Source: Vicinamibacteria bacterium (lineage in GTDB: Bacteria; Acidobacteriota; Vicinamibacteria; Vicinamibacterales; UBA8438). From it: a DNA stretch of 64,000 nt. The translations under genes and the position numbers were made by a program. Shown in pieces: positions 1,380 to 38,628 of this stretch. Numbering within the stretch: position 1 is the stretch's first letter; every line of letters begins with the position of its first letter. The notes under the pieces were generated by a model. It made no database searches. It saw only the letters and a program-made list of their open reading frames with translations, and was not told where the DNA came from. The stretch is from assembly GCA_022820825.1 (NCBI GenBank), contig JAJEEU010000034.1, positions 5,030-69,029 of the forward strand, written 5' to 3'.

Positions 1380-2735
1380 TCAGACGCCCGAGAGGGCCTC
1401 GAGCGACACGCCGGGGATGCGGCCGGTGCTGTCGCCGAACTGCTCCACCGGCACGTCCAGCTTGTCCAGCATCGAGACGTACAGGTTGGTCAGCGGCGTG
1501 TCCTTCGGCAGCACCAGGTGCCGGTCGCCCTTGACGCGCCCGCCGCCGCCGCCGGCCAGCGCAATCGGCAGCTCGTCGTGCGAGTGCAGGTTCGCGTTGC
1601 CGATGCCGGCGCCGTAGACGATCAGCACGTTGTCGAGCAGGTTGGCGTCGCCGTCCGGCGTGGCGCGCAGCCGCTCCAGGAACTGGGCGAACAGCGACAC
1701 GTGGAATGCGTTGACCCTGGCGACGCTCTCCACTGCCTCGGGGTCGTTGATCAGGTGGCTGATCTGGTGGTGGGCGTCCGACACCCCGATCTCGGGGTAT
1801 GCGCGGACAGTGGTCTCGCGCGTGAACAGGAAGCTGAACACGCGCGTCAGGTCGGCCTGGAACGCCAGCGCCTGCAGCTCGTACAGCAGCCTTGCATGGT
1901 CGGCGAACGCCGGCGGGATGCCGCGCGGCTTCTCGACGAGCGGCAGCTCCCGGTCGCTCTGCTCCTCGGCGCGCTGGATGCGGTGCTCCACGCCGCGCAC
2001 CGCCTCCAGGTATTCGTCCATGCGCCGGCGGTCGCCCGGTCCGAGCGTGCTGTTGAGCCGGCGCGCCTCCGCGTTGACCACGTCCAGGACGCTGCGGTCC
2101 TGCTTGATGCGGGCCAGGCGGGCGTCGCGGTCCGTGGAGTCGCTGCCCCCGAACATCCGCTCGAACACCGCCCGCGGATCGCGCTCCATGGGCAGCGGCG
2201 TGGTGGGGTTGGACCACGAGATCGTGTTCATGTAGGCGCAGCTATAGCCCGAATCGCAGGCGCCCGAAATCTCGTTCGACTCCATGGCGAGCTGCAGCGA
2301 CCCGAGCTGCGTCTCGCGCCCGAGCACGTGCGCCGCGATCTGGTCGACGGTGGTGCCGGAGCGGATGTCGGACCCTTCGGTCTTCTTGATGGGCACGCCG
2401 CTCAGGAAAGTGCCGGCGCCGCGGGAGTGGTCTCCCACGCCTTCCGTTCCCCGGGCGTTGGCCACCAGGTTGGCGAGCCCGCTGAAGACGACCAGCCGGT
2501 CGCGGAACGGCTCCAGCGGCTGCAGCGTCGGCGACAGCGCGAACCCGGGCTCGCTCGTCTCCGGAAAGAAATGCGGCAGGGACATGCCGTTGGGGACGTA
2601 CACCGCGCCGAACCGGCGCACCGTCTGGGGCGAGGCGAACGCCGGCACCATGCCGTCGAGCAGCGGCAGCGCCAGCGAGGCGCCCATGCCGCGCAGCACC
2701 GTGCGCCGCGAGAGCCCGCGTCTTGTGACGATCAT
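1380..2735 (-). CDS. DUF1552 (HxxSHH) family protein, Tat-like signal (triad 1)
   Basis: Start re-called to MIVTRRGLSRRTVLRGMGASLALPLLDGM. It overlaps the upstream stop by 4 nt (ATGA at 2732-2735). It is paralogous over its full length to the CDSs at 12039, 27905 and 36076. The 874-aa track ORF (1380..4004) is an artefactual extension. Confidence 0.85.
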   Translation of the reverse strand: MIVTRRGLSRRTVLRGMGASLALPLLDGMVPAFASPQTVRRFGAVYVPNGMSLPHFFPETSEPGFALSPTLQPLEPFRDRLVVFSGLANLVANARGTEGVGDHSRGAGTFLSGVPIKKTEGSDIRSGTTVDQIAAHVLGRETQLGSLQLAMESNEISGACDSGYSCAYMNTISWSNPTTPLPMERDPRAVFERMFGGSDSTDRDARLARIKQDRSVLDVVNAEARRLNSTLGPGDRRRMDEYLEAVRGVEHRIQRAEEQSDRELPLVEKPRGIPPAFADHARLLYELQALAFQADLTRVFSFLFTRETTVRAYPEIGVSDAHHQISHLINDPEAVESVARVNAFHVSLFAQFLERLRATPDGDANLLDNVLIVYGAGIGNANLHSHDELPIALAGGGGGRVKGDRHLVLPKDTPLTNLYVSMLDKLDVPVEQFGDSTGRIPGVSLEALSGV

Positions 2736-5182
2736 TGAGCGCTCCTCATCCGAAACGGCGGACTGTCCACGATGGCCCCGACCAGCGCCGACCAGCGGTA
2801 GTCGTCCGCGGACGCGCGCCGCATGATCTCGCGCACCGCCGGCTGATCGTAATACTCGAGGCCGCGGCCCAGCGCGTAGGTCAGCAACTTGCGCGTGACT
2901 GTCGCGATGAACAGATCCTGGCGCGCGAGCAACGCCTGCCGCAACTCCACCGGCCCGTCGAACGTCGTGCCGTCGGCCGTGGTGCCGGACGCATCGACCG
3001 GCACCCCGTTGTCGGTCTCGCGCCAGCGGCCGATCGGGTCGAAGTTCTCCAGCGCGAAGCCGAGCGGGTCGATCTTCGCGTGGCAGGTCGCGCACGCAGG
3101 ATTCCGGCGGTGCTGCTCCAGCCGCGCGCGCGTCGACTGCGGCTGGCCGGCGGAGCCGTCCTCTTCCAACGCCGGCACGTCGGGCGGCGGGGGCGGCGGC
3201 GGAGCGCCCAGAATCGACTCGAGCACGAACTTGCCGCGCAGCACGGGCGACGTACGGTTGGCGTACGACGTGGCCGTCAGGATGCTGCCGTGGCCCAGCA
3301 GCCCGGCCCGCCGCCCGTCCGCCAGCTCCACGCGGCGGAAGTGGCTGCCGTACACGCCGGGCACGCCGTAGAAGCGGGCGAGGTGCTCGTTGAGGTACGT
3401 GTACGGCGCGCTCAGCAAATCCACGACGCTGGCATCCTCGCGCACCTGGCTGGCCAGGAACAGCCCGGTCTCGCGGCGGAAGGCATCGCGCAGCTTGTCG
3501 TCGAAAGCCGGGTACAGCTCCGCGTCCGGCTGCAGCCGGCCCAGGTTCCGCAGGTAGAGCCACTGGCCGAAGAAGTTGTCCACCAGCGCGGCGGCGCGCG
3601 GATCCGCCACCATCCGCCCGACCTGCGCTGCGAGGATGTCGGGCTCGGCCAGCTCGCCGCGCTCGGCCAGCGCGAGCAGCTCGTCGTCGGGGATGCTGCT
3701 CCATAGGAAAAACGACAGCCGCGAAGCCAGCTCCAGGCCGTCGATCTCGTAGGCATCTCCCGGGGCAAGACCTTCCGGGTCGCGCTCGACGCGGAAGAGG
3801 AAGTGCGGATTGACGAGCACGGCGGCCACGCCCGCCTGCACGCCGGCCTCGAAATCGGCGCCGGCCGTCCGCCGGTCGCGGTAGGCCGCAAGCAGCGGAT
3901 CGACGTCCGTGGCGGTCACGGACCGGCGGTAGGCGCGCTTGGCCAGCGCCGACAGGATGCTTGCGGCGCAGCGCTCCTCGTCGCTCGCGCCGGCCGGACG
4001 GCAAGTGAAGATCCGCTGGCGGCTCGGGGAATCCCCCACGCCCCTGACGTCGTACGGCCCGCCAATCGTGACCGCGCTGATGGCCGGCAGGCCGCTGGAA
4101 TCGTCGTTGTGGCTGAAGCTGCGCGTCGGCAGCGGCAGCCGCAGACCCTCCGGCGCGCCGCTCTGCCCGGGGAACGTCACGGTCACCGCATGCGGACCGG
4201 CCTCAACCGGCAGGCGGACGAACAACTCCTGATCGAGCTGTTGCGTCGCCTGCAGGCCGCCGCGCCGGTCGATGCCGCCGACGATGTCGGCCGGCCCCAC
4301 CGTGAAGCTCCTGACGAGCCTGCCGTTCAGCCGCACGTCGATCCGGTGCTCATCCTCCACGTCGGCCGCCCGATCACCGAGCCCCTTCAGCCGGCCCGAC
4401 ATGATGGCCCGCTGCAGCTCGATGCGGATGCCGTACTCGGCGTCGACGGGAAAGGTGTGGCGCACGCTGACGCCGCCGCGCGTGCCGAACGGCAGCTCCT
4501 CGCCCATCCGGTCGTCCTGGCGGAAGTTGCGCGATGCGTGGTAGATCACCTCTCCCGCGCCGATGTCGGCGTCGCCAACCGCCAGGCGGCTTATTCGCTG
4601 GGCGGCCGACAGGTAGCGCTCCAGCAGCGGCTGCGAAACCGTCAGCACGTCGCCGATGTTGTCGAAGCCGTAGCTCGCGTCGTCGGCCGGCAGCAGCGCT
4701 CGGCCGTCGATGTCGAGGGCCAGGAGATCGCGGACGGCGTTGGTGTACTCGGCGCGGTTCAGGCGATGCACCGCCGCCGACCGCCCGGGATTCACCCGCT
4801 CGGCCGCCGCCGCGTCCAGGTTCTCCGCGAGCCAGGCGGCGAACCCGGCGTAGGTGGCTTCATCCGGCCGCGGCCGGCCGGCCGGCGGCATCTCGCGCGC
4901 CTGCAGCTTCTGCAGCACCTTCTCCCACAACGGGGCGTCGGCCGCGACGTGCGCGAGATCCGCCTGGTCGAGCGTGAGATTCGCCGTGCGCAGCCGGTCG
5001 TTGTGGCAACCGGCGCAGTAGCGCTCGATGACCGCGCCGTAGTGGTCGGCGGACACGGCCGGGGCGTCCGCCCCGGGCTGGGCGGACACGGCCGCGGCCG
5101 AAACGACGCCGGCCACCGCTACCGCTGCAACCGCCGCGGCGATGCGGCCGGCGCGCCGCCATGGCGGCATCAGGAAAGGCAT
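2732..5182 (-). CDS. DUF1592/DUF1588/DUF1585-type (PSD/PSCyt) di-haem cytochrome c domain protein (triad 1)
   Basis: 816 aa with a signal peptide. N-terminal RYCAGCHNDRLRTANLTLD and C-terminal NPACATCHAKIDPLGFALENFDPIGRWR each carry a CxxCH motif. The poly-Pro linker GAPPPPPPPDVPAL is shared with three paralogs. Confidence 0.85.
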   Translation of the reverse strand: MPFLMPPWRRAGRIAAAVAAVAVAGVVSAAAVSAQPGADAPAVSADHYGAVIERYCAGCHNDRLRTANLTLDQADLAHVAADAPLWEKVLQKLQAREMPPAGRPRPDEATYAGFAAWLAENLDAAAAERVNPGRSAAVHRLNRAEYTNAVRDLLALDIDGRALLPADDASYGFDNIGDVLTVSQPLLERYLSAAQRISRLAVGDADIGAGEVIYHASRNFRQDDRMGEELPFGTRGGVSVRHTFPVDAEYGIRIELQRAIMSGRLKGLGDRAADVEDEHRIDVRLNGRLVRSFTVGPADIVGGIDRRGGLQATQQLDQELFVRLPVEAGPHAVTVTFPGQSGAPEGLRLPLPTRSFSHNDDSSGLPAISAVTIGGPYDVRGVGDSPSRQRIFTCRPAGASDEERCAASILSALAKRAYRRSVTATDVDPLLAAYRDRRTAGADFEAGVQAGVAAVLVNPHFLFRVERDPEGLAPGDAYEIDGLELASRLSFFLWSSIPDDELLALAERGELAEPDILAAQVGRMVADPRAAALVDNFFGQWLYLRNLGRLQPDAELYPAFDDKLRDAFRRETGLFLASQVREDASVVDLLSAPYTYLNEHLARFYGVPGVYGSHFRRVELADGRRAGLLGHGSILTATSYANRTSPVLRGKFVLESILGAPPPPPPPDVPALEEDGSAGQPQSTRARLEQHRRNPACATCHAKIDPLGFALENFDPIGRWRETDNGVPVDASGTTADGTTFDGPVELRQALLARQDLFIATVTRKLLTYALGRGLEYYDQPAVREIMRRASADDYRWSALVGAIVDSPPFRMRSAQ

Positions 5183-5189: not shown

Positions 5190-6668
5190 TCAGTACCGCA
5201 GCCGCTTCTGCTCGTGCGAGGGCGGCGTGGGACGGGCGCCGTGGAGCTTCAGCAGCGCCATCGTGCTCTCGTGAACCGTCTTCGTCATCGTGGTCGTGTC
5301 GAAGAAGCCCGAGGCAATAGCCAGCGGCGTCCAGCCCACGATGTTCTCCGCGTCCACTTCCGCGCCGTGGTCCAGCAGCAGTTGCGCCACGCTGTCCCAG
5401 CCGGTGTAGGCCGCCGCGTGCAGCGCCGTCTCGCCGACGGTGTTCGCGCCGTTGACGTCAACCCCGGCGTCGATGATCAGGCGCGCCGCCTCCAGCGCGT
5501 CGCGCTCCGGATGGATGTCGGTGCCGATCGAGTACGCGTAGCCGGCCGCGGCGGTCAGCGCCGTCGTCTCGTCGTCGGTCTCCAGCAGGGGATCCGCGCC
5601 GGCCGCCAGCAGCGCGCGCATGATGTCGAGGTCGGCCGCCCGCGCCGCCACGATGAAGGGTGTCGCCCCCGCCATCGCCATGCGGCGAAAACCAAGGAAG
5701 CCTTGCGTGGGGGGATTGCTCCGCAGCCGGATGTTCGGGTCCGCGCCCGCGGCGAGGAGCGCCTCGACCAGCGCCAGCTTGCCCGGCCCGCGGCCCGCGT
5801 AGCGGTCCCAGCCGGTCGTGCCGCCGGCTTCCGTGGTCGTGAGCGCCGTCTCCCAGACCCCCGCCGCCCAGTGCAGCGCCGCGAAACCCGCGCCGTCGGC
5901 GTCGGGGTCGGCTCCGTGGTCGAGCAGCAGATGCGCGAGCGGCCAGCGGCCGTGCACCACCGCGACGACGAGCGCGGTCGTGCCGTCCGCCGCCTCGGCG
6001 TCGACGTCGGCCTGCCGCTCCAGCAGCAGCCGCACGGCGGCCTCATGGTCCTCGCGGACGGCGAACAGCAGGGGCGTGTAGCCGCCGGCCGAGCTCGCCT
6101 GCACATCGGCTCCAGCCGCGAGCAGACGCCGCAAGACCTCGGTGTGCCCGGCCGACGCGGCCCACATCAGCGCCGTCTGGCCGTGCGCGGCGTCATGGAC
6201 ATCGACCTCGGCGCCGGCGTCCAGGAGGGCGTTAATGACTGCCAGGCTGCCGGTGCGCGCCGCGAACATGAGCGGCGTGGCGCCGTGCTCGTCCGCGAGG
6301 TTCGGGTCGGCGCCCGCGGCGAGCAGCCGCTCGACCATGGCGAGGCTGCCGTTCGTGGACGCCAGCGCGAGCGGCGCCACGCCGTAGTCGTTCGCCGCGT
6401 CGACGCGGGCGCCCGCCGCGATAAGCAGCGCGGCGGTTTCCAGGTCGTCCCAGTGGGCCGCCCAGTGCAGCGGCGTCGCGCCGTCCGCCTGCGGCGCGTT
6501 GACGTCGACGCGCTCGTCTACAAGCGCACGGACAGCAGTCGGGTTGCGGTCCCTGACCGCCTCGACGAGGCGTTCGTCGTTCTCCGCGGCCCGCGGGAGA
6601 ACGGCCGTTGCGCCGAGAGACAGAACGACCGCCGCGGCGGCAAGACCGTGCCGGACCCTGGTGGTCAA
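5190..6668 (-). CDS. exported ankyrin-repeat protein (triad 1)
   Basis: TTG start re-called (LTTRVRHGLAAAAVVLSLGATAVLPRAAE), 16 nt after the upstream stop. It has many G-TPLH-AA..GH...V..LL..GAD repeats. The N-terminus aligns with the other three ankyrin genes. The start codon is uncertain. Confidence 0.8.
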   Translation of the reverse strand: MTTRVRHGLAAAAVVLSLGATAVLPRAAENDERLVEAVRDRNPTAVRALVDERVDVNAPQADGATPLHWAAHWDDLETAALLIAAGARVDAANDYGVAPLALASTNGSLAMVERLLAAGADPNLADEHGATPLMFAARTGSLAVINALLDAGAEVDVHDAAHGQTALMWAASAGHTEVLRRLLAAGADVQASSAGGYTPLLFAVREDHEAAVRLLLERQADVDAEAADGTTALVVAVVHGRWPLAHLLLDHGADPDADGAGFAALHWAAGVWETALTTTEAGGTTGWDRYAGRGPGKLALVEALLAAGADPNIRLRSNPPTQGFLGFRRMAMAGATPFIVAARAADLDIMRALLAAGADPLLETDDETTALTAAAGYAYSIGTDIHPERDALEAARLIIDAGVDVNGANTVGETALHAAAYTGWDSVAQLLLDHGAEVDAENIVGWTPLAIASGFFDTTTMTKTVHESTMALLKLHGARPTPPSHEQKRLRY

Positions 6669-6685: not shown

Positions 6686-7777
6686 CTACTCCTCGGCCAG
6701 GTACGGCACGGCCGGCTCGCGGATGCCGGGGTGGCCGGCCTCCTTCCGCTGGCGGGACACCCGCGCGGCCGCCTCCAGCGCCTGCTGCTCGTCGGCGCGG
6801 CCGCCGCTGAGCAGGTTCGGCATGCCGTGGTTCCCCTCGTGGCACGCGTACTCGAAAAGATGGTTGAGCGGGTTGCCGCCGGTGTCGCGCCGCGTCATCG
6901 GGATGGACAGCGTGTACGGCCGCGTATAGATCTCCGGATCCTCGATCGTGAGCTCGTAGTCGATCGAGTTGGCGTCGCGCAGCGTGAACCGCTCCACCAC
7001 GCGCAGCGTGCCGCCGGGTCCGCGGTGCCCCGTCTGAATGATGTGCGACGGCTGGTAGTCGCCGCCGTCCAGCCGGTTGTTGAAGCGCTCGGTCTCGACG
7101 ACGAGCGTATCGCCCTCCCAGCGGCCGCGGCTGTCGCCCAGCCACTGCCGCACGCCGTCGGCGACGTGGGGCCGCCCGTCGAGCGGAATGATGCGCGCTT
7201 CGTGGATCATCTCGATGACGATGGCCACGTAGTCCTGCGTCTGCAGGATCTGGTAGTTCGCGTTGTAGCCATTGGGGATCATCGCGACCGGCATGGTCCG
7301 CGAGATGCAGCGCTCCCAACTGTTGCGGTCGAGCCAGGAATCGGCCTCGCCGCGCCCGTCGCGCGCGTTCTCGCGCTCTATCAGCCGCTGCTTCGCCGCC
7401 GGCAGCAATTCGGGGATCCGCCCGTCCGGCGGGTCGACGATGAGCGATTCCCGGATCATCGTCCCCGACCGCTCGATCCACGCGGCGCCGGTGCCCTGCG
7501 TGGCGGCGATCACGGCCTGCTGCGCGAGCTGGCCGCGCTCCTTCTCCGCTTCGGTCAGGCGCTCCATCGGGGTGTCGGTGGAGTTGTTCCACACGCCGCG
7601 CAGGTCGGGGTCGCCCCACGCGGTGCGCGGCAGCTCGCCGTCCGCGGGCGGCAACAGCCCGTCCAGGCTGGTCGGCGCCCCCGAATACAACCGGTCGCCC
7701 TGCCCCGCCGCGGGCGCGGCGAAGGCGGCGAGCAGGATGATGAACGCCCCGGTGACCGACAGGTATCGATAGCTCAT
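6686..7777 (-). CDS. secreted 'YACHEGN' family protein, paralog 1 of 7 (function unknown)
   Basis: Start at MSYRYLSVTGAFIILLAAFAAPAAG (signal peptide). Family motifs: PRTAWGDPDLRGVW, SLIVDPPDGRIP, ERCI, EMIHEARIIPLDGRP, SRGRWEGDTLVVET, VERFT, FEYACHEGNHG. Confidence 0.8.
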   Translation of the reverse strand: MSYRYLSVTGAFIILLAAFAAPAAGQGDRLYSGAPTSLDGLLPPADGELPRTAWGDPDLRGVWNNSTDTPMERLTEAEKERGQLAQQAVIAATQGTGAAWIERSGTMIRESLIVDPPDGRIPELLPAAKQRLIERENARDGRGEADSWLDRNSWERCISRTMPVAMIPNGYNANYQILQTQDYVAIVIEMIHEARIIPLDGRPHVADGVRQWLGDSRGRWEGDTLVVETERFNNRLDGGDYQPSHIIQTGHRGPGGTLRVVERFTLRDANSIDYELTIEDPEIYTRPYTLSIPMTRRDTGGNPLNHLFEYACHEGNHGMPNLLSGGRADEQQALEAAARVSRQRKEAGHPGIREPAVPYLAEE

Positions 7778-7864
7778 GCAACCCTCCATTGCTCACTGCG
7801 CAATACACCATCCCGCGCGGCCGTTGTCAACCGGCGCGGGCGGTTGCGCGGCGGCTGCCATTGG

Positions 7865-7893
7865 TTGACGACCTCCCGGCGCGCGGGTAGACT
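7865..7893 (+). promoter_or_regulatory. candidate sigma70-like promoter TTGACG-17 nt-TAGACT upstream of the ankyrin gene at 7921
   Basis: Hexamers are at 7865-7870 and 7888-7893 in the 143-bp divergent intergenic region. The -35 overlaps the right arm of the inverted repeat GTCAACC (7826-7832) / GGTTGAC (7863-7869). Promoter rules for this lineage are unknown. Confidence 0.3.
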
Positions 7894-13397: not shown

Positions 13398-13766
13398 TCA
13401 CCTGCACGCCGCGCAGCGGCCAAAGAGAATCAGCTCGTGGCCGTCGACCTCGAAGCCCTCGGGCGCCAGCTCCTTGACTCCATCGGGACACCGCAGGACA
13501 TCGAACGCCTGATCGCAGCAGCGACACAGGAAGTGGTGGTGATGCGGGCGCGCGGCCAACTCGTACCGCAGCCCGCCGCCGGGAAGATCCACTTCCGATA
13601 ACCACCCCTCGCCAGCCAGGGCCTTCACGTTCCGGTAGACGGTCGCCAACCCGAGCGACGGCACGATCCGCTGGCCGTGCTCGAGGACCTCGTCCGGCGT
13701 CAGGGGACGCTCGACGCTCATGAACACGCGGCGGATCGCCGTGCGCTGACGGGTGTCTCGTTGCAT
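13398..13766 (-). CDS. Fur family transcriptional regulator (Fur/Zur/PerR-like)
   Basis: 122 aa. TRQRTAIRRVF...GLATVYRNVKAL forms the winged helix. HHHHFLCRCC and GRCAAC give two CxxC pairs typical of the Fur structural Zn site. Confidence 0.85.
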   Translation of the reverse strand: MQRDTRQRTAIRRVFMSVERPLTPDEVLEHGQRIVPSLGLATVYRNVKALAGEGWLSEVDLPGGGLRYELAARPHHHHFLCRCCDQAFDVLRCPDGVKELAPEGFEVDGHELILFGRCAACR

Positions 13767-18530: not shown

Positions 18531-18535
18531 CCATT

Positions 18536-30770: not shown

Positions 30771-30773
30771 CCG

Positions 30774-31244
30774 CTAACGCTCCTCGCACTCGCCGTAGTA
30801 CTGCTCCGGGCGCGACGTGAAGCCGCGCCGCTGCACGTCCTGGTATTCGTGCCGACTGTGGACGGCCAGCAGCTTCCCGTCGGGCGTCTCCCGGTTGAAG
30901 ACCGTGGTGCTGTAGAGCGGCCCCTCGGCCAGCACCTGTATGAAATGCAGGTAGTCCCCTGTCGCTTGCGCCACGACGGGGGATGAGCCGAAACGCCCCA
31001 GCACGTCGGCGCTTGCCTCGTCCGCGTTGATCGACTCGAAGCGGAACGCCAGCGTCGAGCTCTCGACCGCCACGGCGGGTCCGTCGTCCGCCCACGATCC
31101 CTTCGCCTGCACCGTGAACGTGCAGGCCAGGGTGCGGACCGTCCTTAGTCGATCGTCTTGCGGGCGGCCCTCCACGAGCGGCGGCTGGACATTCAGGAGG
31201 CAGCCGAGTGCGGCCCACACCGCAGCCTGCCGCGTCAATCCCAT
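30774..31244 (-). CDS. hypothetical protein
   Basis: 156 aa with high GC3, last in the minus-strand gene string. No family recognised. Confidence 0.5.
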   Translation of the reverse strand: MGLTRQAAVWAALGCLLNVQPPLVEGRPQDDRLRTVRTLACTFTVQAKGSWADDGPAVAVESSTLAFRFESINADEASADVLGRFGSSPVVAQATGDYLHFIQVLAEGPLYSTTVFNRETPDGKLLAVHSRHEYQDVQRRGFTSRPEQYYGECEER

Positions 31245-31266
31245 ATGCCCTCCCCGTACGGCCGCT

Positions 31267-31671
31267 TCACCTGCCGGTTTCGATTTCCGCCGCGGAACCG
31301 CCCAGGAACAGCCGCTTGCCGTCGGCGAGCGTGAAGTCCCTGCCCACGCCCTTGTTCGTGCCGTCCTTGGCCTGGTAGCCGTCGACGACGAGCTCCGTGC
31401 CGATCGCCAGCGTATTCTTCGTCACGCCCAGCCTGATGAGCTGGTTGGGACTGCCGCCCTCGATCATCCACGTGGTGACGCTCCCGTCCACGTCCTCCAC
31501 GTCGATGTGGAACCACGAGTGCGGATTGATCATCTCCCACTTGACGAGCTTGCCGCGGAGCTGCAGGGGGCGGTCGACGTCGAACTCGGCCGAAAAGGCG
31601 TGGTGCGCCCAGCCGGGCGCCGCAAGCTGCAAGCCCGCGGCGGCCAGTGCGGCCACTCTCAGCATTCGCAT
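31267..31671 (-). CDS. small exported protein, DUF6152-like (HHxxxAEFD N-terminus)
   Basis: Start re-called to MRMLRVAALAAAGLQLAAPGWA, with GGAG upstream. The mature N-terminus is HHAFSAEFDVDRPLQLRGKLVKWEMINPHSWF. The family assignment is from memory only. Confidence 0.55.
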   Translation of the reverse strand: MRMLRVAALAAAGLQLAAPGWAHHAFSAEFDVDRPLQLRGKLVKWEMINPHSWFHIDVEDVDGSVTTWMIEGGSPNQLIRLGVTKNTLAIGTELVVDGYQAKDGTNKGVGRDFTLADGKRLFLGGSAAEIETGR

Positions 31672-31682
31672 GGCATCCGCTC

Positions 31683-32765
31683 CTATCTCACTTCCAGCTT
31701 CGCGGCATCCTCGGCGGCCTGGTCCTCGTCGGCGCGGGCGCCGCGGAGCGCGTTGTACATGCTGTAGTTGCCCTCGTGGCAGGCGAACTCGACGACCGGG
31801 CCGAGCGTCGTCTGCATGGGCACCTCGGCGGTCCACGGCCGGGCCCAGGTCTCCGGGTCCTCGGCAGTGAAAGCGTAGAGCAGCGTGTCCTCGGCAACGC
31901 GCGTGAAGCGTTCCACGATGCGCAGGCCGCTGCCGGAGCCGCGGAAGGCCGTCTTGTCCGTGAAGTTCGTGGTTTCGACGACGAGCGTGTCACCCTCCCA
32001 GCGGCCGCGTGAATTCCCCATCCACTGGCGGATCCCGTCCGAGATCGGCGGGCGCCCGTCGAGGGGAATGACGCGTACGTCGTGGATCATCTCCACCAGA
32101 ATCGCCACGTAGTCCGGCCCCTGCACGATCTGGTAGGTGTTGTTGTAGCCGCCGGGCAGAACCGGCGGCCCGGCGTTCATCATGATGCAGCGGTCGTCGA
32201 GCTCGTTGTTCTGCGCCGCGTCCCAGCGGCCGCCCATTTGCCGCTGCGTCTCGGCGCGCTCGGCCGCGCGCCGCCGCCCCTGCTCCGTCAGCGGCGGGAT
32301 CCTCCCGTCCGGCGGATCGACAACCAGCGACGTGCGCAGGCTCTCCACGACGGTGGACTGGTTGCGGGCCAGTCCGAACTGGCCGAAGTCGTAGTGGACA
32401 TCGGCCACGCTGCCGGGCTCGGGTGCATCGGCCTCGTCACCGGTTGCCAGCCACCGCCCCAGCCGCGCGTTCGGATTCGCCGACTCGCGGCCGCTCGTGG
32501 ATCCATACGTGCGGAGGTTGAAGTACTCCTCTTCCGTGTAGAACTCCTTGTCGACGTCCCGCGGCCGCTCCATGGGCGTGTAGGTGGCGTTGGTCCAGTA
32601 ACCCTGCAGGTCCGGTTGTCCGTCGGGCGTGCGCGGCAGGGTCCACGCCGATTCGCCTTGCGGCCTGGTCTCCGGCGCGGCGTCCTGCTGCCCCGCGCCG
32701 GCCGCCGGCACCACGACCAAGCCACCGACAGCGAGCGCCAGCACAGCCGCGTTGAAAGCTCTCAT
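31683..32765 (-). CDS. secreted 'YACHEGN' family protein, paralog 5 of 7
   Basis: Start re-called to MRAFNAAVLALAVGGLVVVPAAGA. Motifs: PRTPDGQPDLQGYW, SLVVDPPDGRIP, DRCI, EMIHDVRVIPLDGRP, SRGRWEGDTLVVET, VEFACHEGNYS. Confidence 0.85.
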   Translation of the reverse strand: MRAFNAAVLALAVGGLVVVPAAGAGQQDAAPETRPQGESAWTLPRTPDGQPDLQGYWTNATYTPMERPRDVDKEFYTEEEYFNLRTYGSTSGRESANPNARLGRWLATGDEADAPEPGSVADVHYDFGQFGLARNQSTVVESLRTSLVVDPPDGRIPPLTEQGRRRAAERAETQRQMGGRWDAAQNNELDDRCIMMNAGPPVLPGGYNNTYQIVQGPDYVAILVEMIHDVRVIPLDGRPPISDGIRQWMGNSRGRWEGDTLVVETTNFTDKTAFRGSGSGLRIVERFTRVAEDTLLYAFTAEDPETWARPWTAEVPMQTTLGPVVEFACHEGNYSMYNALRGARADEDQAAEDAAKLEVR

Positions 32766-32785
32766 TGGCAGCCTGCCTTCCCGTG

Positions 32786-33310
32786 TCAATACCTGATGAA
32801 CTCCACGAGGTTCCGATCCGGATCGCGCACGTAGACGCTCGTCCCGGTCGTCGTGCCGCCGCTGCGCCCACCGACGCGCTCGGCCGGCCCCTCGATGACC
32901 TCCGCCCCCGCACGGTCGAGGGCAGCCTGCAGCGACTCCGGCGTGCCGTCCCACACGAAGCAGAAGTCGCCGCATCCCGGCAACGCCGTCGGCCCACGCA
33001 GGGTGAAGGACTCGCGCCGCCACATGTGCGGCTGGTGGAAATGGATCTTCTGGTCGCCGAACCGGAGGTGGCAGCGCCTGTCGTCATGGAGCACGTCCAT
33101 CCCGAGAGCGCGGTAGAACGCCACCATCGCCTGCGTGTTCTCCATGGGAAACGAGACGTGGTCGATGCTGCGGATCCCGGCGGATGGCTGCGCGGCCAGG
33201 GAACCGTCGATTCGCGAGGCGCCCGCCGAGGCCAGCGCGCCCGCGGCAACGACGCGCTTGATGAAGGCGCGTCGCGTGCGGCCGGCCGGCTGCGGTCCGC
33301 CAGTAGCCAC
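32786..33310 (-). CDS. single-domain VOC (glyoxalase-like) protein with a Tat-type signal
   Basis: GTG start at 33310 gives VATGGPQPAGRTRRAFIKRVVAAGALASAGA. The VOC-like core is IDHVSFPMENTQAMVAFYRALGMDV ... VYVRDPDRNLVEF. The start codon is uncertain. Confidence 0.7.
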   Translation of the reverse strand: MATGGPQPAGRTRRAFIKRVVAAGALASAGASRIDGSLAAQPSAGIRSIDHVSFPMENTQAMVAFYRALGMDVLHDDRRCHLRFGDQKIHFHQPHMWRRESFTLRGPTALPGCGDFCFVWDGTPESLQAALDRAGAEVIEGPAERVGGRSGGTTTGTSVYVRDPDRNLVEFIRY

Positions 33311-33318
33311 GGCGCAGC

Positions 33319-34764
33319 CTATTCCGTCGCTCCCAGGCGCCGCAGGAGCTCCGCCGTACGCTCGGGGTCGCGCCCCCCGCGGCGCCAGCGCGTCGTGGTC
33401 ATCGCCAGCGGCGTCCGGCCGTCGGCGTTCTCCAGGTCCAGGCCGGCGCCCCGGCCAACGAGATACTCCACCACCGAGTCGAACGCACTGGCGGCCGCGT
33501 AGTGCAGGGCCGTGTTGCCGGCGGCATTGGCCGCATGGATGTCGACGCCCAGCTCCGCCGCCGTTCTGACGGCTTCCAGCGTGCCGGCCTCCACCGCGGC
33601 CCGATCGGAACCGGGTCTCCGATGCCGCCTGGCAAGCGGCGCCATGAGGGACGTCGTCCCGTCCTCCAATGTCGCGTCCGGCTGCCCGCCGGCCGCGGCC
33701 AGCGCGCGCATCATCGCGGCGTCGCCGAACATCGCGGCCATCCAGAACGGCGTCGCGCCGACCCAGGTGTAGTCCATGGCCCAATCGCGGCTCAGGCGCC
33801 GGAACGGCGTGGGGCGCGCGAGCCGCACGTTCGGATCCGCTCCGTGATCGAGGAGCGCGCTCAGCATTTCGCCATCGCCCCGGAGCACCGCCGCGTGCAC
33901 CGCTGCATAACCTGCGCCGGCCGCGTGTGGATCCGCGCCTCGTTCCAGCAGGAACCGCGCGAGCGCGGTATGGCCGCCATGAGCCGCCACGACGAGAGCG
34001 CTGGCGCCAGTCGGCGCCGTGTCGTTGACGTCCGCGCCGGCGTCGAGCAGCAGCCGGGCCGACTCGACCTCCCCGTGCCTCGCGGCGAACAGCAGCGGCG
34101 TATAGCCGCCGCGGTCTTCCGGCACCACCATGCTGCCGCCGTCGAACTCCGCATCGCCGCCCGCGGTGCCGACGTTGACGACCACGCGCCGCACGGCCGA
34201 GCGCGCGCGGACGTCGGCGCCCTGCTCGATCAGCAACCGCACGACGCCGGGATGCCGCTGCGCCACCGCCCACATGAGCGCCGTCTGCTCTCTCGAGCCT
34301 TCCTTCGCGTTGGGGTCGGCGCCGTGGCGCAGCAGGACCTCCACGGCGTCCACCATGCCCGTGCGCGCGGCCGTCATCAGCGGCGTTTCGCCGCTGGGCA
34401 GCGCCGCGTTGGCATCCGCCCCGGCCCGCAGCAGCAGCCCGATCATCGACGCGCTGCCGTGCACGCAGGCCAGCCACAGCGGCGTGGCGCCGAGCTCGTT
34501 GACGGCGTCGACGTCCGCGGCGGCGCGGATCAGCAGGTCGGCCGTCTCGTGCTCGTCCCAATGCGCGGCCCAGTGGAGGGCGGTGGTGCCGTCGGGCTGC
34601 GTCGCGTTGACGTCGGCGCCCTCCTCGAGAAGGGCGCGCACGGCGGCGTGGTCGCGCTCCCTGGCGGCCTGCACGAGTTGCAGGTCGCTGTTGGCGGCGG
34701 CGACGCCGGCAACTGCCAGCAACACTACCGCGCAAGCACTACACGAGGCTGAGCGGTTCGACAT
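33319..34764 (-). CDS. exported ankyrin-repeat protein (triad 4)
   Basis: 481 aa. MSNRSASCSACAVVLLAVAGVAAA is followed by DLQLVQAARERDHAAVRALLEEGADVNATQPDGTTALHWAAHWDEHE and ankyrin repeats. It overlaps the upstream gene end by 26 nt. Confidence 0.85.
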   Translation of the reverse strand: MSNRSASCSACAVVLLAVAGVAAANSDLQLVQAARERDHAAVRALLEEGADVNATQPDGTTALHWAAHWDEHETADLLIRAAADVDAVNELGATPLWLACVHGSASMIGLLLRAGADANAALPSGETPLMTAARTGMVDAVEVLLRHGADPNAKEGSREQTALMWAVAQRHPGVVRLLIEQGADVRARSAVRRVVVNVGTAGGDAEFDGGSMVVPEDRGGYTPLLFAARHGEVESARLLLDAGADVNDTAPTGASALVVAAHGGHTALARFLLERGADPHAAGAGYAAVHAAVLRGDGEMLSALLDHGADPNVRLARPTPFRRLSRDWAMDYTWVGATPFWMAAMFGDAAMMRALAAAGGQPDATLEDGTTSLMAPLARRHRRPGSDRAAVEAGTLEAVRTAAELGVDIHAANAAGNTALHYAAASAFDSVVEYLVGRGAGLDLENADGRTPLAMTTTRWRRGGRDPERTAELLRRLGATE

Positions 34765-36076
34765 CCAGCGCCCCGGTGCTGACGCCGAGCTGTTCGCGGT
34801 GCACGCCGAACATCTCCAGCAGCGCCAGGTTCAGATTGGCCATCGGCGTGTCCGCGTAGGTGAGATGGCGGCCGCCCCTGACCCCTTCGCCGCCGCCGCC
34901 GGCCAGCAGCAGCGGCAGGTTGGTCCGCGCATGCGCATTGGAATCGGACATGCCGGCGCCGTAGAGAATCACCATGTGGTCGAGCAGCGATCCGTCGCCG
35001 TCCGGCGTCGAACCCAGCTTGTCCAGGTAATAGGCGAACAGGCTCACGTGATGGGTGTTGATCTTCGCCAGCTTCTCGTACAGCACGGGGTCGTGGCGGT
35101 GGTGCGAGCACGGGTGGTGCGAGTCGGGGACGCCGATTTCGTTGTAGGTGCGCCCGCTCAGCTCGCGGCCCATCATCATGGTGCTCACGCGCGTCAGGTC
35201 GGTCTGGTAGGCGAGCACCTGCAGATCGAACATCAGCCGGGCGTGATCGGCGTACGACGCCGGAATGCCGGGCGGCTGGTCGACGACCGGCAGCGCCTCG
35301 GCGCCCTGCTCCTCCGCCCGCTGGATGCGGCGCTCGACGTCGCGCACCGCGTCGAGGTACTCGTCGATCCGCGTGCGGTCGCCCGTTCCGAGCTCGCGCG
35401 TAAGGTCGGACACCGTCTCGGTCACCGAGTCGAGAATGCTGCGCTGCTCGGCGATGCGCTGCAGCCGCACCCCCGCGTCGGTGCTCCCGCTGTCGCCGAA
35501 CAGCCGCTCGAACAACGCGCGCGGGTTGTTCTCCATCGGCAGCGGGGTGGTCGGCGTGCGCCACGCGATCGTGTTCGAGTAGGCGCAGGCGAAACCGACG
35601 TCGCAGGAACCGGAGACGTCCCGGCTGTCGAGGCTGACCTCAATGGACGCGAGCTGCGTCTGCTGCCCCAGCGACCGCGCGATGTACTGGTCGATCGAAA
35701 CGCCCGCCTGCAGCTCGTACTCCGACGGCATGGCGCTCAGGCCCGTCAGGAACCGCGTGGAGGCATTCGCATGAAAGCCGCCGTTGGGCTCCGGGCCGTG
35801 CATCCCGGAGAGGACGAGCAGGCGATCGTGGAACTGCTCCAGGGGTTCGAGGATGCGCGTGAGCTCGAAGCCCGCGCCTTCGGTGGCCGGTGTCCAGTGG
35901 CTCATCGCAATCCCGTTCGGCACATAGACGACGCCAAACCGCCGCGGCGCGCTGGCCGGCGTCTTCCGCAACGCCGCAAACGCGGGCACCATGCCGTCCA
36001 GCAACGGCAGCGCCAGCGATACGCCCAACCCCCGCAGCACGGTACGCCGGTGGACGGCCTTCCTGGTGACGATCAT
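34739..36076 (-). CDS. DUF1552 (HxxSHH) family protein (triad 4)
   Basis: MIVTRKAVHRRTVLRGLGVSLALPLLDGM, with motif PDSHHPCSHHRHD. The start overlaps the upstream stop (ATGA at 36073-36076). Confidence 0.85.
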   Translation of the reverse strand: MIVTRKAVHRRTVLRGLGVSLALPLLDGMVPAFAALRKTPASAPRRFGVVYVPNGIAMSHWTPATEGAGFELTRILEPLEQFHDRLLVLSGMHGPEPNGGFHANASTRFLTGLSAMPSEYELQAGVSIDQYIARSLGQQTQLASIEVSLDSRDVSGSCDVGFACAYSNTIAWRTPTTPLPMENNPRALFERLFGDSGSTDAGVRLQRIAEQRSILDSVTETVSDLTRELGTGDRTRIDEYLDAVRDVERRIQRAEEQGAEALPVVDQPPGIPASYADHARLMFDLQVLAYQTDLTRVSTMMMGRELSGRTYNEIGVPDSHHPCSHHRHDPVLYEKLAKINTHHVSLFAYYLDKLGSTPDGDGSLLDHMVILYGAGMSDSNAHARTNLPLLLAGGGGEGVRGGRHLTYADTPMANLNLALLEMFGVHREQLGVSTGALDVEPLSLV

Positions 36077-38628
36077 GACTGTGAGCTCCTCATCTGAAAC
36101 GGCGCGCTCCTGGCGATTCCCAGGACGATCGCGGACCAACGATAGTCGTTTTCGGCGGCCTCGCGCACTATGCCTCGAACGGCAGGCATGTCGTAGTGCT
36201 CTATGCCACGGCCGAGCGCGTAGGTCAACAACTTCTCGGTAACCGTGCGCACGAACTGCTCGCGGCGGTCGTGCAGCAGATCCCGCAGCCCCGCCAGCCC
36301 GGCGATGCGCGTGCCGTCCGGCAGCACCGCCGACGGATCGATGGCGGCGCCCTCGTCGACCGCGCGCCAGGCGCCGGTTGCGTCGAACGACTCGAGCGTG
36401 AACCCCAGCGGATCGATCGACGCGTGGCAGCCGGCGCACGCGGGACTCCGCCGATGCGCCTCCAGGCGCTCGCGCACGGTGGCGTGCTCCCCGTCCGCGC
36501 CACGCTCTGGCAGCGCCGGCACGTCCGCCGGGGGCGGCGGCGGGGGCGTGCCGAAGATGTTCTCGAGCAGCCACTTGCCGCGCAGCACGGGCGACGTGCG
36601 GTTGGGATACGAGGTGACGGTCAGCACGCTGCCGTGGCCGAGCAGTCCCCCGCGCCGCCCGTCGCTCCAGGCCACGCGGCGGAAGCGGTTGCCGTACACG
36701 TTCGGCACGCCGTAGTGCCGCGCCAGCCTCTCATTGAGATACGTGTAGTCGGCGCTCAGCAGCTCCGGTACGCCGCGATCCTCGCGAATCTGGCTCTCGA
36801 TGAAGAGCCGCGTCTCCTGCAGGAGCGCTGCGCGCAGGTTGTCGTCGAAGTCGGGAAACTCGGCGGGGTCCGGATACACGGTCTCGACGTTGCGCACGTG
36901 GAGCCATTGGCCCGCGAATCCGTCGACCAACGTCGCCGCCCGCGGATCCGCCAGCATGCGCCGCACCTGGCGTTCCAGCACGCCGGCGTCCCGCAGCTCG
37001 CCCCGCGCCGCCGCCTCCAGCAGCTCGTCGTCCGGGATGCTGCTCCACAGGAAGAACGACAGCCGCGAGGCCAGCTCCAGGTCGCTGACCCGATAGGGCG
37101 CGCCCGGCGCCGCGTGCGGCGCGTCGCGCTCGATGCGGAACAGGAAGTTCGGGTCGACCAGCAGCCGTTCGAGCGCCAACTGGATGCCCGCGTCGAAGCT
37201 GCCCTTCTCCCGGCCCGCGGCATAGAACTCCAGCAGGGTCTGCAGTTGCCGGTCCGTGGCGGGCCGGCGGTACGCCGCAGTCGCGATCCGGGTGAGGATC
37301 CTGATGGCGCAGGCCTGCTCGTCCGCGGCGCGCAGCGGGCGGCAACCGAAAATCGCGTTGCGGCTGGGCGTCTCCCCCACCCCTTCCTGCGCGTAGGGGC
37401 CGCTGATGACGACGCTGCCCACCGCCGGGAAGCCGTCCGGCATGGCGTCGATGGCCAGGGCGAAACCGTACGGACGGGGCTGGAGCACGCCGTCGGGCTC
37501 CCAGAGCTGCCGCAGGAACGCCACGACCACCCGGCGGGGCCCGGCCTGCACCGGCAGGCGCAGCACCAGATCCTCGTCCGCATGCTGCATGTAGTGCTCC
37601 CATTCGAGGCTGCCCAGGATGTTGCCCTCGTAGCTCTCCGGGGCGGCGCCCGGCGCGCGGTACTGCGTGCGCTGCCCGGCTACCCCGAATGCGAGCTGAC
37701 CCCGCGCCGGCGCCGGCGCCGCCGTCGTGTCGCGCGGCGTGCCGGGCGCTGCCGCGTCCGCGTCGGCCGCGGGGGCGTCTCCGCCCACGGTGAACAGCTC
37801 GACGCGCTGTCCGTCCAGGCGGACCTCGACCTGATGCGCCGAGTTCAGGCCGCGAATGTAGTCGACGTAGTTGGTCTGCAGATCGACCCTGATGACGTAT
37901 TCGCCGTCGACGGGAAAGTTGTGGGTGAAGGCGGCGCCGCCGCGCGAGCCGAGCGGAAAGTCCTCGCTCAGGCGATCCTCCTGCACCAGGTTGATGGGGA
38001 CGTCGTAGGTCTCGACGACCGGCTGCTGCGGCAGTCCCACGGCAAGCCGGCTGACCTTCCGCGCGGCCGACAGGTAGCGCTCCATCAGCGCCGGCGAGAC
38101 CGTCAGCACGCCGGCCATGTTGTCGAATGCGTAGCCCGGCGCGTCGGCCGGCAGCAGCTCGGCGACGTCGACGTCGAGCGCCAGCAGGTCGCGGACGGCG
38201 TTCTGGTACTGCCCCCGGCTGAGGCGGTGGAACGCGGCGCTGCGCCCCGGGTTGGGGCTGGCGGCGGCCGCCTGATCGAGCGACGCTTCAAGCTGCGTGA
38301 CGAAGGCGTCGAACGCGGCCTGATCGGGCCGTGGACGACCAGGTGGCGGCATCGCGCCCATCCGGATTTTCCGGATTACCCGCTCCCACACCTCGGCTCC
38401 GGCGCCCACGCTCGCCGTGTCGATCGTGTCGAGCGCCAGGCCGCCGGTCCGCAACCTGTCGTTGTGGCAGGTCACGCAGTACCGATCGAGGAGCGGCCGC
38501 AACTGCGAGGCTGGAGGGGAATTCGAAACCGTGGACGCCTGCTGCGGGCTGCCGGCATGCAAGGGCGCCGCACACAGCACCGCAACGCCCGCTGCGAAGG
38601 CCGCCGTCCCACCCTGGCCCCGGCGCAT
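36073..38628 (-). CDS. DUF1592/DUF1588/DUF1585-type di-haem cytochrome c domain protein (triad 4)
   Basis: RYCVTCHNDRLRTGGLALD and SPACAGCHASIDPLGFTLESFDATGAWR carry the CxxCH motifs. Start is taken at MRRGQGGTAAFAAGVAVLCAAPLHA (38628); an alternative ATG is at 38673. Confidence 0.8.
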   Translation of the reverse strand: MRRGQGGTAAFAAGVAVLCAAPLHAGSPQQASTVSNSPPASQLRPLLDRYCVTCHNDRLRTGGLALDTIDTASVGAGAEVWERVIRKIRMGAMPPPGRPRPDQAAFDAFVTQLEASLDQAAAASPNPGRSAAFHRLSRGQYQNAVRDLLALDVDVAELLPADAPGYAFDNMAGVLTVSPALMERYLSAARKVSRLAVGLPQQPVVETYDVPINLVQEDRLSEDFPLGSRGGAAFTHNFPVDGEYVIRVDLQTNYVDYIRGLNSAHQVEVRLDGQRVELFTVGGDAPAADADAAAPGTPRDTTAAPAPARGQLAFGVAGQRTQYRAPGAAPESYEGNILGSLEWEHYMQHADEDLVLRLPVQAGPRRVVVAFLRQLWEPDGVLQPRPYGFALAIDAMPDGFPAVGSVVISGPYAQEGVGETPSRNAIFGCRPLRAADEQACAIRILTRIATAAYRRPATDRQLQTLLEFYAAGREKGSFDAGIQLALERLLVDPNFLFRIERDAPHAAPGAPYRVSDLELASRLSFFLWSSIPDDELLEAAARGELRDAGVLERQVRRMLADPRAATLVDGFAGQWLHVRNVETVYPDPAEFPDFDDNLRAALLQETRLFIESQIREDRGVPELLSADYTYLNERLARHYGVPNVYGNRFRRVAWSDGRRGGLLGHGSVLTVTSYPNRTSPVLRGKWLLENIFGTPPPPPPADVPALPERGADGEHATVRERLEAHRRSPACAGCHASIDPLGFTLESFDATGAWRAVDEGAAIDPSAVLPDGTRIAGLAGLRDLLHDRREQFVRTVTEKLLTYALGRGIEHYDMPAVRGIVREAAENDYRWSAIVLGIARSAPFQMRSSQS

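Follow-up and report, generated by a model that had tools for sequence, protein, structure and literature searches.

The DUF1592 and DUF1552 proteins of bacteria form a long-known, uncharacterised pair, and what is new here is that this pair has a third partner, an exported ankyrin-repeat protein. The partner was recognised in a stretch of 64,000 nucleotides (nt), referred to as the window, from a Vicinamibacteria bacterium of soil type (contig JAJEEU010000034.1 of assembly GCA_022820825.1), in which the genes for a DUF1592-type di-haem cytochrome, a DUF1552 (HXXSHH) protein and the ankyrin stand side by side four times (triads T1 to T4). The ankyrin gene is kept beside the pair in several phyla, is missing beside the pairs of Planctomycetota/Verrucomicrobiota type, and has diverged together with the cytochrome gene. 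The reading that we favour, at a probability of about 0.55, is a periplasmic redox module of three components, with the ankyrin bound to the cytochrome and serving it as a scaffold or as an assembly or stability factor.

The PSCyt and DUF domains were reportedly named by Studholme in 2004, and the function of the pair is said to have been open since. Both the pairing of PSCyt3 with DUF1552 and its expansion into paralogs have been published, with the function given as unknown (He et al., 2017, PMC5615132), just as the first-pass annotation of this DNA had stated. That annotation knew of no described ankyrin partner, and no such description turned up in the searchable literature: a full-text search for all of the DUF names returned nothing that links them with ankyrin. 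NCBIfam has no model for the three specific families, nor for a recurrent neighbour here called family X.

The first triad lies on the minus strand. Its ankyrin gene (5190-6668, 492 amino acids (aa), Sec-like signal, Pfam Ank_2/Ank at E 1e-57 to 1e-61) has a TTG start codon and is followed by the cytochrome gene (2732-5182, 816 aa, six Pfam domains above the gathering score, CxxCH at residues 56 and 697) and the DUF1552 gene (1380-2735, 451 aa, PF07586 E 2.6e-95), the product of which has a twin-arginine N-terminus with SRRTVLRG and the motif HQISHL. A further conserved gene, the family X gene at 6686-7789 (-) with a signal-peptide-like N-terminus, ends 17 nt upstream of the T1 ankyrin start; T1 is therefore a four-gene string in which this accessory, non-core gene comes first. 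T2 is found on the plus strand, with the ankyrin at 7921-9570 (549 aa, Pfam Ank E 5e-62), the cytochrome at 9586-12009 (807 aa, five PSD/PSCyt3 domains above the gathering score, CxxCH at 37 and 668) and DUF1552 at 12039-13385 (448 aa, PF07586 E 1.3e-93). T3, also on the plus strand, consists of the cytochrome at 25449-27908 (819 aa, Pfam, CxxCH at 53 and 698), DUF1552 at 27905-29239 (444 aa, PF07586 E 5e-102, modelled with an alkaline-phosphatase-superfamily fold) and the ankyrin at 29265-30770 (501 aa, Pfam Ank). T4 is encoded on the minus strand by the cytochrome at 36073-38628 (851 aa, Pfam, CxxCH at 51 and 731), DUF1552 at 34739-36076 (445 aa, PF07586 E 1e-96) and the Pfam-assigned ankyrin at 33319-34764 (481 aa).

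All twelve open reading frames (ORFs) translate without internal stops, and a six-frame scan of the whole window with hidden Markov models (HMMs) detects each family four times and no more. The DUF1552 gene is directly downstream of the DUF1592 gene in every triad. In T1, T3 and T4 the stop of the one and the start of the other overlap as ATGA, while T2 has a 29-nt spacer; the overlap is a signature of translational coupling and supports the two proteins being made in step. The ankyrin gene is separated from its neighbour by 7 nt in T1, 15 nt in T2 and 25 nt in T3, and its start overlaps the 3' end of DUF1552 by 26 nt in T4. The four triads, their positions and the three ATGA overlaps had all been proposed by the first-pass annotation and hold, and the Pfam profile-HMM check of the twelve proteins assigned all three families. 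The GC content is about 70% throughout the window, and many of the long antisense ORFs are therefore spurious; GC at the third codon position (GC3) was used to single out the real genes. A scan of this 70% GC DNA for promoters and terminators was little informative beyond a promoter-like site at 7865-7893, upstream of the T2 ankyrin.

For the comparison with other genomes, the four window paralogs of each family served to build HMMs, with which the six-frame ORFs of the fetched loci were scanned. The closest relatives (up to 83% identity for DUF1552 and 71% for the ankyrin) are metagenome-assembled genomes (MAGs) of Vicinamibacterales, so that the window is acidobacterial and not planctomycetal. 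Among the 80 closest DUF1552 loci, 70 (about 88%) have the specific ankyrin within 600 nt. It is found downstream on the same strand in 38 of these, upstream and divergent in 25, upstream on the same strand in six and downstream on the opposite strand in one. Since the ankyrin gene may be downstream, upstream or divergent and nevertheless stays adjacent, selection appears to act on its linkage to the whole pair. The reverse search gives the same picture, with DUF1592 or DUF1552 within 600 nt in 68 of 79 ankyrin-anchored loci and within about 3 kb in five more; four loci with enough flanking DNA have neither partner.

In all, 109 non-redundant complete triads were found in other genomes, far beyond chance. 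The hosts include Vicinamibacterales, Bryobacterales, Terriglobia, Longimicrobiales (Gemmatimonadota), Pseudohongiella/Pseudomonadales, Caulobacterales and one MAG of Acidimicrobiia, and the same trio is seen on Tara/JGI contigs, for which an independent gene caller and precomputed Pfam assignments were used. It is also found on a megaplasmid of Novosphingobium KACC 22771 (48% identity), and all 18 Sphingomonadaceae loci fetched with the DUF1552 protein of that strain contain the triad. The loci include some from type strains, and six are from named cultured strains, among them Sphingobium xenophagum NBRC 107872, Novosphingobium sediminicola DSM 27057 and N. taihuense CGMCC 1.3432. The ankyrin of S. 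xenophagum is collinear with that of T3 (33% identity, residues 22-371) and thus belongs to the same subfamily.

A control set of 80 loci of Planctomycetota/Verrucomicrobiota type, fetched with a Planctomyces protein and representing one subfamily of the Planctomycetota-Verrucomicrobiota-Chlamydiota (PVC) superphylum, displays a different pattern. None of these 80 loci has an adjacent ankyrin, and weak generic Ank matches occur more than 5 kb away in two. The plasmid-borne DUF1592 and DUF1552 pairs of Planctomyces SH-PL62, Chondrinema litorale and Sphingobium herbicidovorans (27-35% identity) also have no ankyrin beside them. A neighbour-joining tree of DUF1552, drawn without support values, places all the sequences that go with an ankyrin in a single clade and every control outside it. 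This clade also contains six cases without an ankyrin from the same taxa, as would fit secondary loss or relocation. The six comprise three pairs (loci L038, L057 and L073) and three DUF1552 genes on Vicinamibacterales chromosomes (L067, L070 and L071). The latter proteins are 57-58% identical to that of T3 and nest in the ankyrin-positive clade; within 8 kb on either side there is no DUF1592 and no ankyrin gene, only family X copies. Orphan ankyrins are found in L105, L118, L131 and L158. Adjacency of the ankyrin is accordingly conserved among relatives from several phyla, as a neighbourhood check suggested in the first-pass annotation brought out, and two details of that annotation need correction: an obligate partner is too strong a term, given these exceptions, and the genome is not Planctomycetota-like, the Planctomycetota/Verrucomicrobiota-type pairs being the ones without an ankyrin.

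The three families have been inherited together. T3 and T4 are the closest pair of the window in all of them (60, 58 and 56% identity for DUF1592, DUF1552 and ankyrin), while the other window pairs are about 50-55, 51-53 and 42-49% identical. The orthologs of T3 are 75-83% identical as against 50-60% for the window paralogs, and the paralogs are therefore old and not recent tandem copies. Across 113 non-redundant complete triads the distance matrices are congruent, with Mantel correlations of 0.90 for DUF1592 and DUF1552, 0.87 for DUF1592 and ankyrin, and 0.78 for DUF1552 and ankyrin (p = 0.001 each). Two families have the same nearest-neighbour locus in 68-75 of the 113 triads, as compared with about one expected by chance, and within the cytochrome clusters the ankyrin subclusters follow the type of gene arrangement. 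Duplication and inheritance as a unit, which had been suggested from the window alone, is borne out by these data. When DUF1552 is controlled for, the ankyrin still correlates with DUF1592 (partial Mantel r 0.62, p 0.001; rank-based 0.56), while the correlation of ankyrin and DUF1552 vanishes when DUF1592 is controlled for (r -0.03, p 0.73; rank-based -0.04). This points to the cytochrome as the evolutionary partner of the ankyrin, and to a probable contact between the two.

The ankyrin itself is, judged from its sequence, a specific and collinear subfamily. All four window copies match Ank, Ank_2, Ank_3, Ank_4 and Ank_5 in Pfam (E 1e-34 to 1e-63) and are collinear over their full length at 42-56% identity. 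The shared collinear N-terminus described by the first-pass annotation is seen in the alignment, while the motif quoted for it is approximate and T1 deviates from it (DERLV..., ERVDVN). Among the 120 listed homologs of the T3 ankyrin, which are 51-96% identical to it, the family has no CxxCH motif and a median of two cysteines.

The large protein displays the same domain order in all four triads, namely PSCyt1, PSD3/DUF1587, PSD5/DUF1595, PSD4/DUF1592, PSCyt3/DUF1588 and PSD2/DUF1585. The last five of these exceed their gathering scores in every copy, with 142-166 bits for PSD4, 122-126 for PSCyt3, 71-92 for PSD2, 74-84 for PSD3 and 60-75 for PSD5. PSCyt1 is above its cutoff of 22 bits in T1 (25.5 bits), T3 and T4, and below it in T2 (20.6 bits). 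Each window protein has exactly two CxxCH motifs, as had been reported for it, one in the N-terminal PSCyt1 region and one in PSCyt3, and the same number is found in 110 of 120 homologs. In the T3 protein, C53/C56/H57, M95 of an MPP motif and C698/C701/H702 are invariant across 39 aligned homologs, which argues for functional haems. A central β-sandwich at about residues 205-380 bears a weak likeness to carbohydrate-binding modules of the CBM35/CBM6 type and can be taken as a hint only; searching the Protein Data Bank (PDB) with the single DUF1592 sequence gave nothing meaningful. The cytochromes also differ in size between the lineages. The median stop-to-stop ORF measures 836 aa in the ankyrin clade, 858 aa in sphingomonads and 1430 aa in the one PVC subfamily sampled. 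The N-terminal (HMM positions 1-200) and C-terminal (405-807) modules of the PVC proteins align with the model of the ankyrin clade, and the difference consists of some 780 additional residues, mostly unannotated, between PSD3 and PSD5.

DUF1552 gives a full-length match to PF07586 in all four triads (314-342 bits against a cutoff of 30, profile positions 1-307, E 1e-93 to 5e-102). The histidine motif noted from the window as HxxSHH is present as HPxSHH in T2 to T4, while T1 departs from it with HQISHL; HH..SH is found in 119 of 120 homologs. Neither the single sequence nor a DUF1552 profile revealed any sequence-level link to an entry in the PDB, and the Pfam Sulfatase model matches none of the four window proteins. 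An AlphaFold2 model of the T3 protein was built from an alignment of 49 sequences (predicted local distance difference test score, pLDDT, 72.7; predicted template modelling score, pTM, 0.75), and Foldseek finds sulfatases, phosphonate monoester hydrolases (PMH), LtaS and YejM as its structural relatives. There are 65 PDB matches at E≤0.001, and all of the 50 listed belong to the alkaline-phosphatase superfamily (probability 0.97-1.0, E 5e-6 to 3e-4). DUF1552 is thereby placed, on the strength of the model, in the alkaline-phosphatase/sulfatase fold class.

The C/S-x-P-x-R signature of the sulfatases (CxPxR or SxPxR) is absent at the corresponding place of DUF1552, where the segment reads H101-x9-TG, and the first strand ends with VPN54G. 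From motif spacing and the order of secondary structure in the model, the invariant His101 would occupy the nucleophile position and Asn54 the place where a metal-binding aspartate is usual. A long helical insertion (about residues 185-256) and the HHxxSHH cluster are further features of the protein. Residues N54, H101, H320, H321, H325, D366 and H382 are conserved to 97% or more in the ankyrin clade and the controls alike, and they are a candidate active site for the whole DUF1552 family. Given a fold of the alkaline-phosphatase type, the histidine cluster is more suggestive of a metal site for catalysis than of a relay in electron transfer.

All three proteins carry N-terminal signals of export by motif heuristics, and the routes given here are predictions. 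A Sec-like hydrophobic N-terminus is found in the four window ankyrins, as the first-pass annotation had seen, and in 110 of 120 ankyrin homologs; it is likewise present in 108 of 120 DUF1592 homologs. The window DUF1552 proteins all begin with the twin-arginine motif xRRTVLRG, and 115 of 120 homologs have a twin-arginine motif. An extracytoplasmic location, which that annotation had put forward, is consequently plausible. A lipobox-like motif occurs in seven of the 120 ankyrin homologs of acidobacterial type, and the ankyrin of S. xenophagum NBRC 107872 (L252, 7271-8701) has a lipobox-like LLALMAGCG that suggests a lipoprotein anchor. Residues 10-32 of DUF1552 (RRTVLRGLGxxLALPLLDxMxPA), the presumed Tat signal, are near-invariant, also when the ankyrin clade is compared with the PVC controls, with R10, R11, L14, G16, G18, L23 and P24 at least 97% conserved in both. 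Such conservation is odd for a cleaved signal peptide, and the segment may be retained or serve in an interaction.

The data establish the family membership and motifs of the proteins, the coupling of the genes, and the conservation of the triad across phyla, its restriction to one clade and the co-divergence of its members, as well as, on the basis of the model, the fold class of DUF1552. In the redox module that we propose, the cytochrome would be exported through Sec and carry two c-type haems, its layout being a class-I-like haem domain at the N-terminus, a short central β-sandwich and a C-terminal PSD5-PSD4-PSCyt3-PSD2 block. DUF1552 would be a Tat-exported subunit of catalytic type, with a cluster of Asn, His and Asp in place of the usual nucleophile and aspartate ligands; its histidine cluster would be a metal site, and the start/stop overlap would keep its synthesis in step with that of the cytochrome. 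The ankyrin, which has no cofactor motif, would be exported through Sec, form a solenoid of about twelve repeats and bind the cytochrome as a dedicated scaffold or as an assembly or stability factor. Its gene was presumably acquired once, in a lineage of pairs with a minimal central module in the cytochrome, and then inherited and duplicated with the pair. The earlier suggestion of an electron-transfer or substrate-capture complex is compatible with these features.

Several points weigh against this proposal. The ankyrin can hardly be needed for the core chemistry, since the PVC pairs work without it, and it is not always in the same operon, being divergent in 25 of the 80 DUF1552 loci. The pattern is broken by the three pairs, the three orphan DUF1552 genes and four to six orphan ankyrins. 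Since the locus sets were made up of the 80 best matches, they favour relatives, and there is some overlap of the DUF1552-anchored set with the ankyrin-anchored one. The length contrast of the cytochromes is drawn from a single PVC subfamily, and the DUF1592 protein of Sphingobium herbicidovorans is short (536 aa) and still lacks an ankyrin. The signal from mirror trees and partial Mantel tests is indirect and can be shaped by differing rates and shared history. As for the structures, the AlphaFold2 model of the T3 cytochrome is poor (pLDDT 63) with no significant whole-fold match, and that of DUF1552 is moderate, with template modelling (TM) scores of 0.35-0.48 to PDB entries. The assignment of haem and metal binding is motif-based, and we infer the physical association of the three proteins, the contact of ankyrin and cytochrome and the redox role.

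It is conceivable, though we doubt it, that the ankyrin replaces the central module of the PVC cytochromes in trans and acts as an adaptor that recruits a third party to the cytochrome/DUF1552 core; this could be a substrate polymer, a periplasmic dehydrogenase, the family X protein or a membrane partner. Such a role would agree with the absence, in the ankyrin clade, of the residues found between PSD3 and PSD5 in the PVC proteins, with the PSCyt proteins of that superphylum that are reported to have protein-interaction or carbohydrate-binding domains fused to them (PMC5615132, PMC3542564), and with the recurrence of family X, PQQ dehydrogenase, NHL and VOC genes near the triads, often beside the ankyrin. 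The linkage of these neighbours is however loose and variable (median distance about 2 kb) and not one of them is universal, a single subfamily underlies the length contrast, and the tight tracking of cytochrome divergence by the ankyrin makes the cytochrome itself the better candidate for a binding partner. A purely hydrolytic module, in which DUF1552 is a phosphatase-, sulfatase- or phosphotransferase-like enzyme and the cytochrome-like partner has a structural, sensing or targeting role, is in our view unlikely. In its favour, every Foldseek match is to a hydrolase or transferase of the alkaline-phosphatase superfamily, and sulfatase genes are reported near PSCyt genes in Verrucomicrobia (PMC5615132). 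Against it speak the missing sulfatase signature, the invariant Asn in place of Asp after the first β-strand and the invariant His at the putative nucleophile (both positions being inferred), as well as the invariance of both CxxCH motifs and the MPP methionine in the cytochrome.

That the ankyrin is merely a co-regulated or hitch-hiking neighbour with an independent function in the periplasm is quite improbable. In favour of this reading, its position and strand do vary, orphan ankyrins of the same subfamily exist, and there are ankyrin-less pairs inside the clade. Yet the adjacency has been kept across Acidobacteriota, Gemmatimonadota, Alpha- and Gammaproteobacteria in spite of the rearrangements, the linkage is reciprocal and near-complete, and the trees are congruent, with a shared nearest-neighbour locus about 65 times as often as by chance. 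Hardly any credence can be given to the triad being an anti-phage defence system or a secreted-effector cassette. The idea arises from matches of the ankyrin to the PADLOC models PDC-M72A, Ankyrin and MzaA and to NCBIfam models of Legionella Ank effectors; these are generic repeat matches far under the curated cut-offs (for instance 113 bits against 800), and such an identity was rejected for the ankyrin since only sub-threshold, repeat-driven matches were found. DUF1592, DUF1552 and family X have no PADLOC match, the loci contain no genes for secretion systems, nucleases, ATPases or mobile elements, and all three proteins carry periplasmic export signals by the heuristic.

The proposed redox module with a dedicated ankyrin can be compared with several known systems. 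It shares with the PSCyt3 and DUF1552 module of the PVC superphylum the domain set and order, the DUF1552 gene directly downstream and the presence of several paralogs per genome. It differs in the linked exported ankyrin gene, which is missing in 80 of 80 PVC-type loci, in a cytochrome that is about 600 aa shorter because of its minimal central module, and in its hosts, which are Acidobacteriota, Gemmatimonadota and Proteobacteria. The DUF1501 and PSCyt1/PSCyt2/PSD1 module of the same superphylum (Kamneva et al., 2012, PMC3542564) likewise pairs a sulfatase-like protein that has a Tat signal with a modular c-type cytochrome, and some of its clusters add separate protein-interaction proteins (WD40, Big_2). 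Other Pfam families are found on both sides there, and the extra partners are cytochromes containing WD40 or Big_2 and not ankyrins. The type I sulfatases and the alkaline-phosphatase superfamily (for example 9hh2, 7aj0, 4upk, 4uoo and 6vat) resemble DUF1552 in the overall fold predicted by the model and in being exported. DUF1552 is set apart from them by the lack of sequence similarity and of C/S-x-P-x-R, by Asn54 and His101 in place of the Asp ligand and the nucleophile, and by its helical insertion and HHxxSHH cluster.

A precedent for an ankyrin as an accessory to a bacterial haem protein is provided by KatB-AnkB. AnkB is a much smaller ankyrin-repeat protein than the triad ankyrins. According to a later paper that cites the original work, it is a periplasmic ankyrin needed for full KatB activity in Pseudomonas aeruginosa (Howell et al., 2000, J Bacteriol 182:4545, cited in PMC12754779), and katB-ankB is also found in Myxococcus (PMC12754779). 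What the two systems share, by this description, is an ankyrin with export signals that is encoded beside a haem protein. The partner of AnkB is a b-type haem catalase, and that system has no third subunit of alkaline-phosphatase fold. In Cellvibrio japonicus, the c-type cytochrome domain of Cbp2D, a protein that contains DUF1587/PSD3, reduces a copper lytic polysaccharide monooxygenase (LPMO; Branch et al., 2021, PMC8981238). Cbp2D/CjX183 is similarly modular and extracytoplasmic, combining c-type cytochrome domains and DUF1587/PSD3 with binding modules, and one of its haem domains reduces a His-ligated metalloenzyme. The partner is there the copper LPMO and not DUF1552, and there is neither an ankyrin nor a PSD4/PSCyt3/PSD2 block.

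Family X is one of the accessory genes that recur near the triads without belonging to their core. The window has seven paralogs, at 6686-7789 (-), 17284-18351 (+), 20034-21011 (-), 23394-24383 (-), 31683-33023 (-), 48574-49752 (-) and 49655-50731 (-), and the five that were aligned are 43-47% identical. It is an unannotated protein of exported type with the invariant motifs SLVVDPPDGRxP, RQWxGDSRGRWEGDTLVVET and EYACHEGNYG, and it has no match in Pfam, NCBIfam, PADLOC or, by profile, the PDB. The family is large: a library clustered at 50% contains 12,268 representatives at E≤1e-3, and 993 remain at E≤1e-30. It is found in 48 of 159 triad loci as compared with none of the 80 PVC control loci, and 16 of 75 copies are no more than 400 nt away from a gene of the triad, in most cases that of the ankyrin. 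The ORF at 24400-25326 has no Pfam match and aligns poorly with family X (24% identity); it has matches (227-237 bits) in the two most closely related loci, L001 and L002.

Genes for pyrroloquinoline quinone (PQQ) dehydrogenases recur at a distance of a few kb or less in 49 of 159 triad loci; 19 of the 64 copies are no further than 600 nt away, for the most part next to the ankyrin gene. The recurrence could reflect a functional link, as c-type cytochromes are reduced by PQQ enzymes, or simply the abundance of the family in such genomes. In the window there are two genes for soluble glucose/sorbosone dehydrogenases (GSDH) and one for a PQQ β-propeller dehydrogenase, at 51406-52737 (-), 52846-54123 (-) and 60822-62672 (-). 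The PQQ dehydrogenases were not counted as components, nor were the NHL protein and a 519-aa cytochrome c, since these neighbours are recurrent and only loosely linked; all of these families may simply be common in such genomes. A two-domain gene of the vicinal oxygen chelate (VOC)/glyoxalase type is placed directly upstream of DUF1592, on the same strand, in ten proteobacterial loci (Pseudohongiella, Pseudomonadales and other Proteobacteria), among them L012, L015, L019, L023, L050, L132, L136 and L148. The median distance to the nearest triad gene is 84 nt for 11 copies, and the copy in L015 has a twin-arginine N-terminus. The VOC homolog of the window (125-1195, +) is convergent with the DUF1552 gene of T1.

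Other neighbours are found in the window itself. Between T2 and the next family X copy are a gene for a FUR-family regulator (13398-13778, -), preceded by a promoter-like site at 13851-13823, and one for an AcrB-type RND transporter (13959-17282, +); neither was counted as part of the system, as they show no conservation near triads elsewhere (one locus for FUR). A gene pair at 21001-21951 (-) and 21897-23336 (-), the window copies of which have no Pfam match, recurs near triads in 8-12 loci (including L044, L047, L049, L098 and L158), and relatives of the larger gene have a cytochrome c domain and CxxCH (the representative in L073). Directly upstream of T4 and on its strand, the genes at 38637-43445 (-) encode a CarboxypepD_reg protein with an outer-membrane barrel, resembling TonB-dependent receptors, a molybdopterin oxidoreductase of the sulfite-oxidase type and a mono-haem cytochrome c, the gene of which ends 8 nt before that of the T4 cytochrome. 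These genes were also rejected as parts of the system, the cytochrome c and the molybdenum (Mo) enzyme being found near triads in 0-2 loci. In L001 and L002 a gamma-glutamyltranspeptidase gene directly follows the ankyrin of the T3-type triad. The window copy is at 43701-45422, and the intervening 13 kb or so (30771-43700) hold DUF6152, a family X copy, T4 and the Mo-enzyme cluster. The displacement suggests that T4 came to lie beside T3 through an insertion or rearrangement.

The pairs of PSCyt proteins with DUF1552 and with DUF1501 are among the largest paralog families of Planctomycetota, Verrucomicrobiota and, as seen here, Acidobacteriota. The ankyrin partner offers a way into the assembly of the complex, with co-evolution pointing to a contact of ankyrin and cytochrome, and the fold and the invariant residues of DUF1552 provide candidate active-site targets for mutation. 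Genetic tools are in common use for Sphingomonadaceae. The presence of the triad in cultured members of this family makes knock-outs and pull-downs feasible, unlike in the uncultured Vicinamibacterales. To our knowledge, exported bacterial ankyrins with a housekeeping rather than an effector role are rare, and a conserved one is of wider interest for that reason. A more far-reaching and speculative possibility, with the odds clearly against it, is that the triads represent a new class of periplasmic oxidoreductases, widespread among soil and marine bacteria, in which a redox metal centre in the histidine cluster of DUF1552 has taken the place of the hydrolytic nucleophile and Asp ligands and is fed by the di-haem cytochrome, the ankyrin is an obligate subunit, and the family X proteins with their CHEGN motif are substrates or a fourth component. 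If that were true, no bacterial enzyme complex with an ankyrin scaffold at its centre would have been known before.

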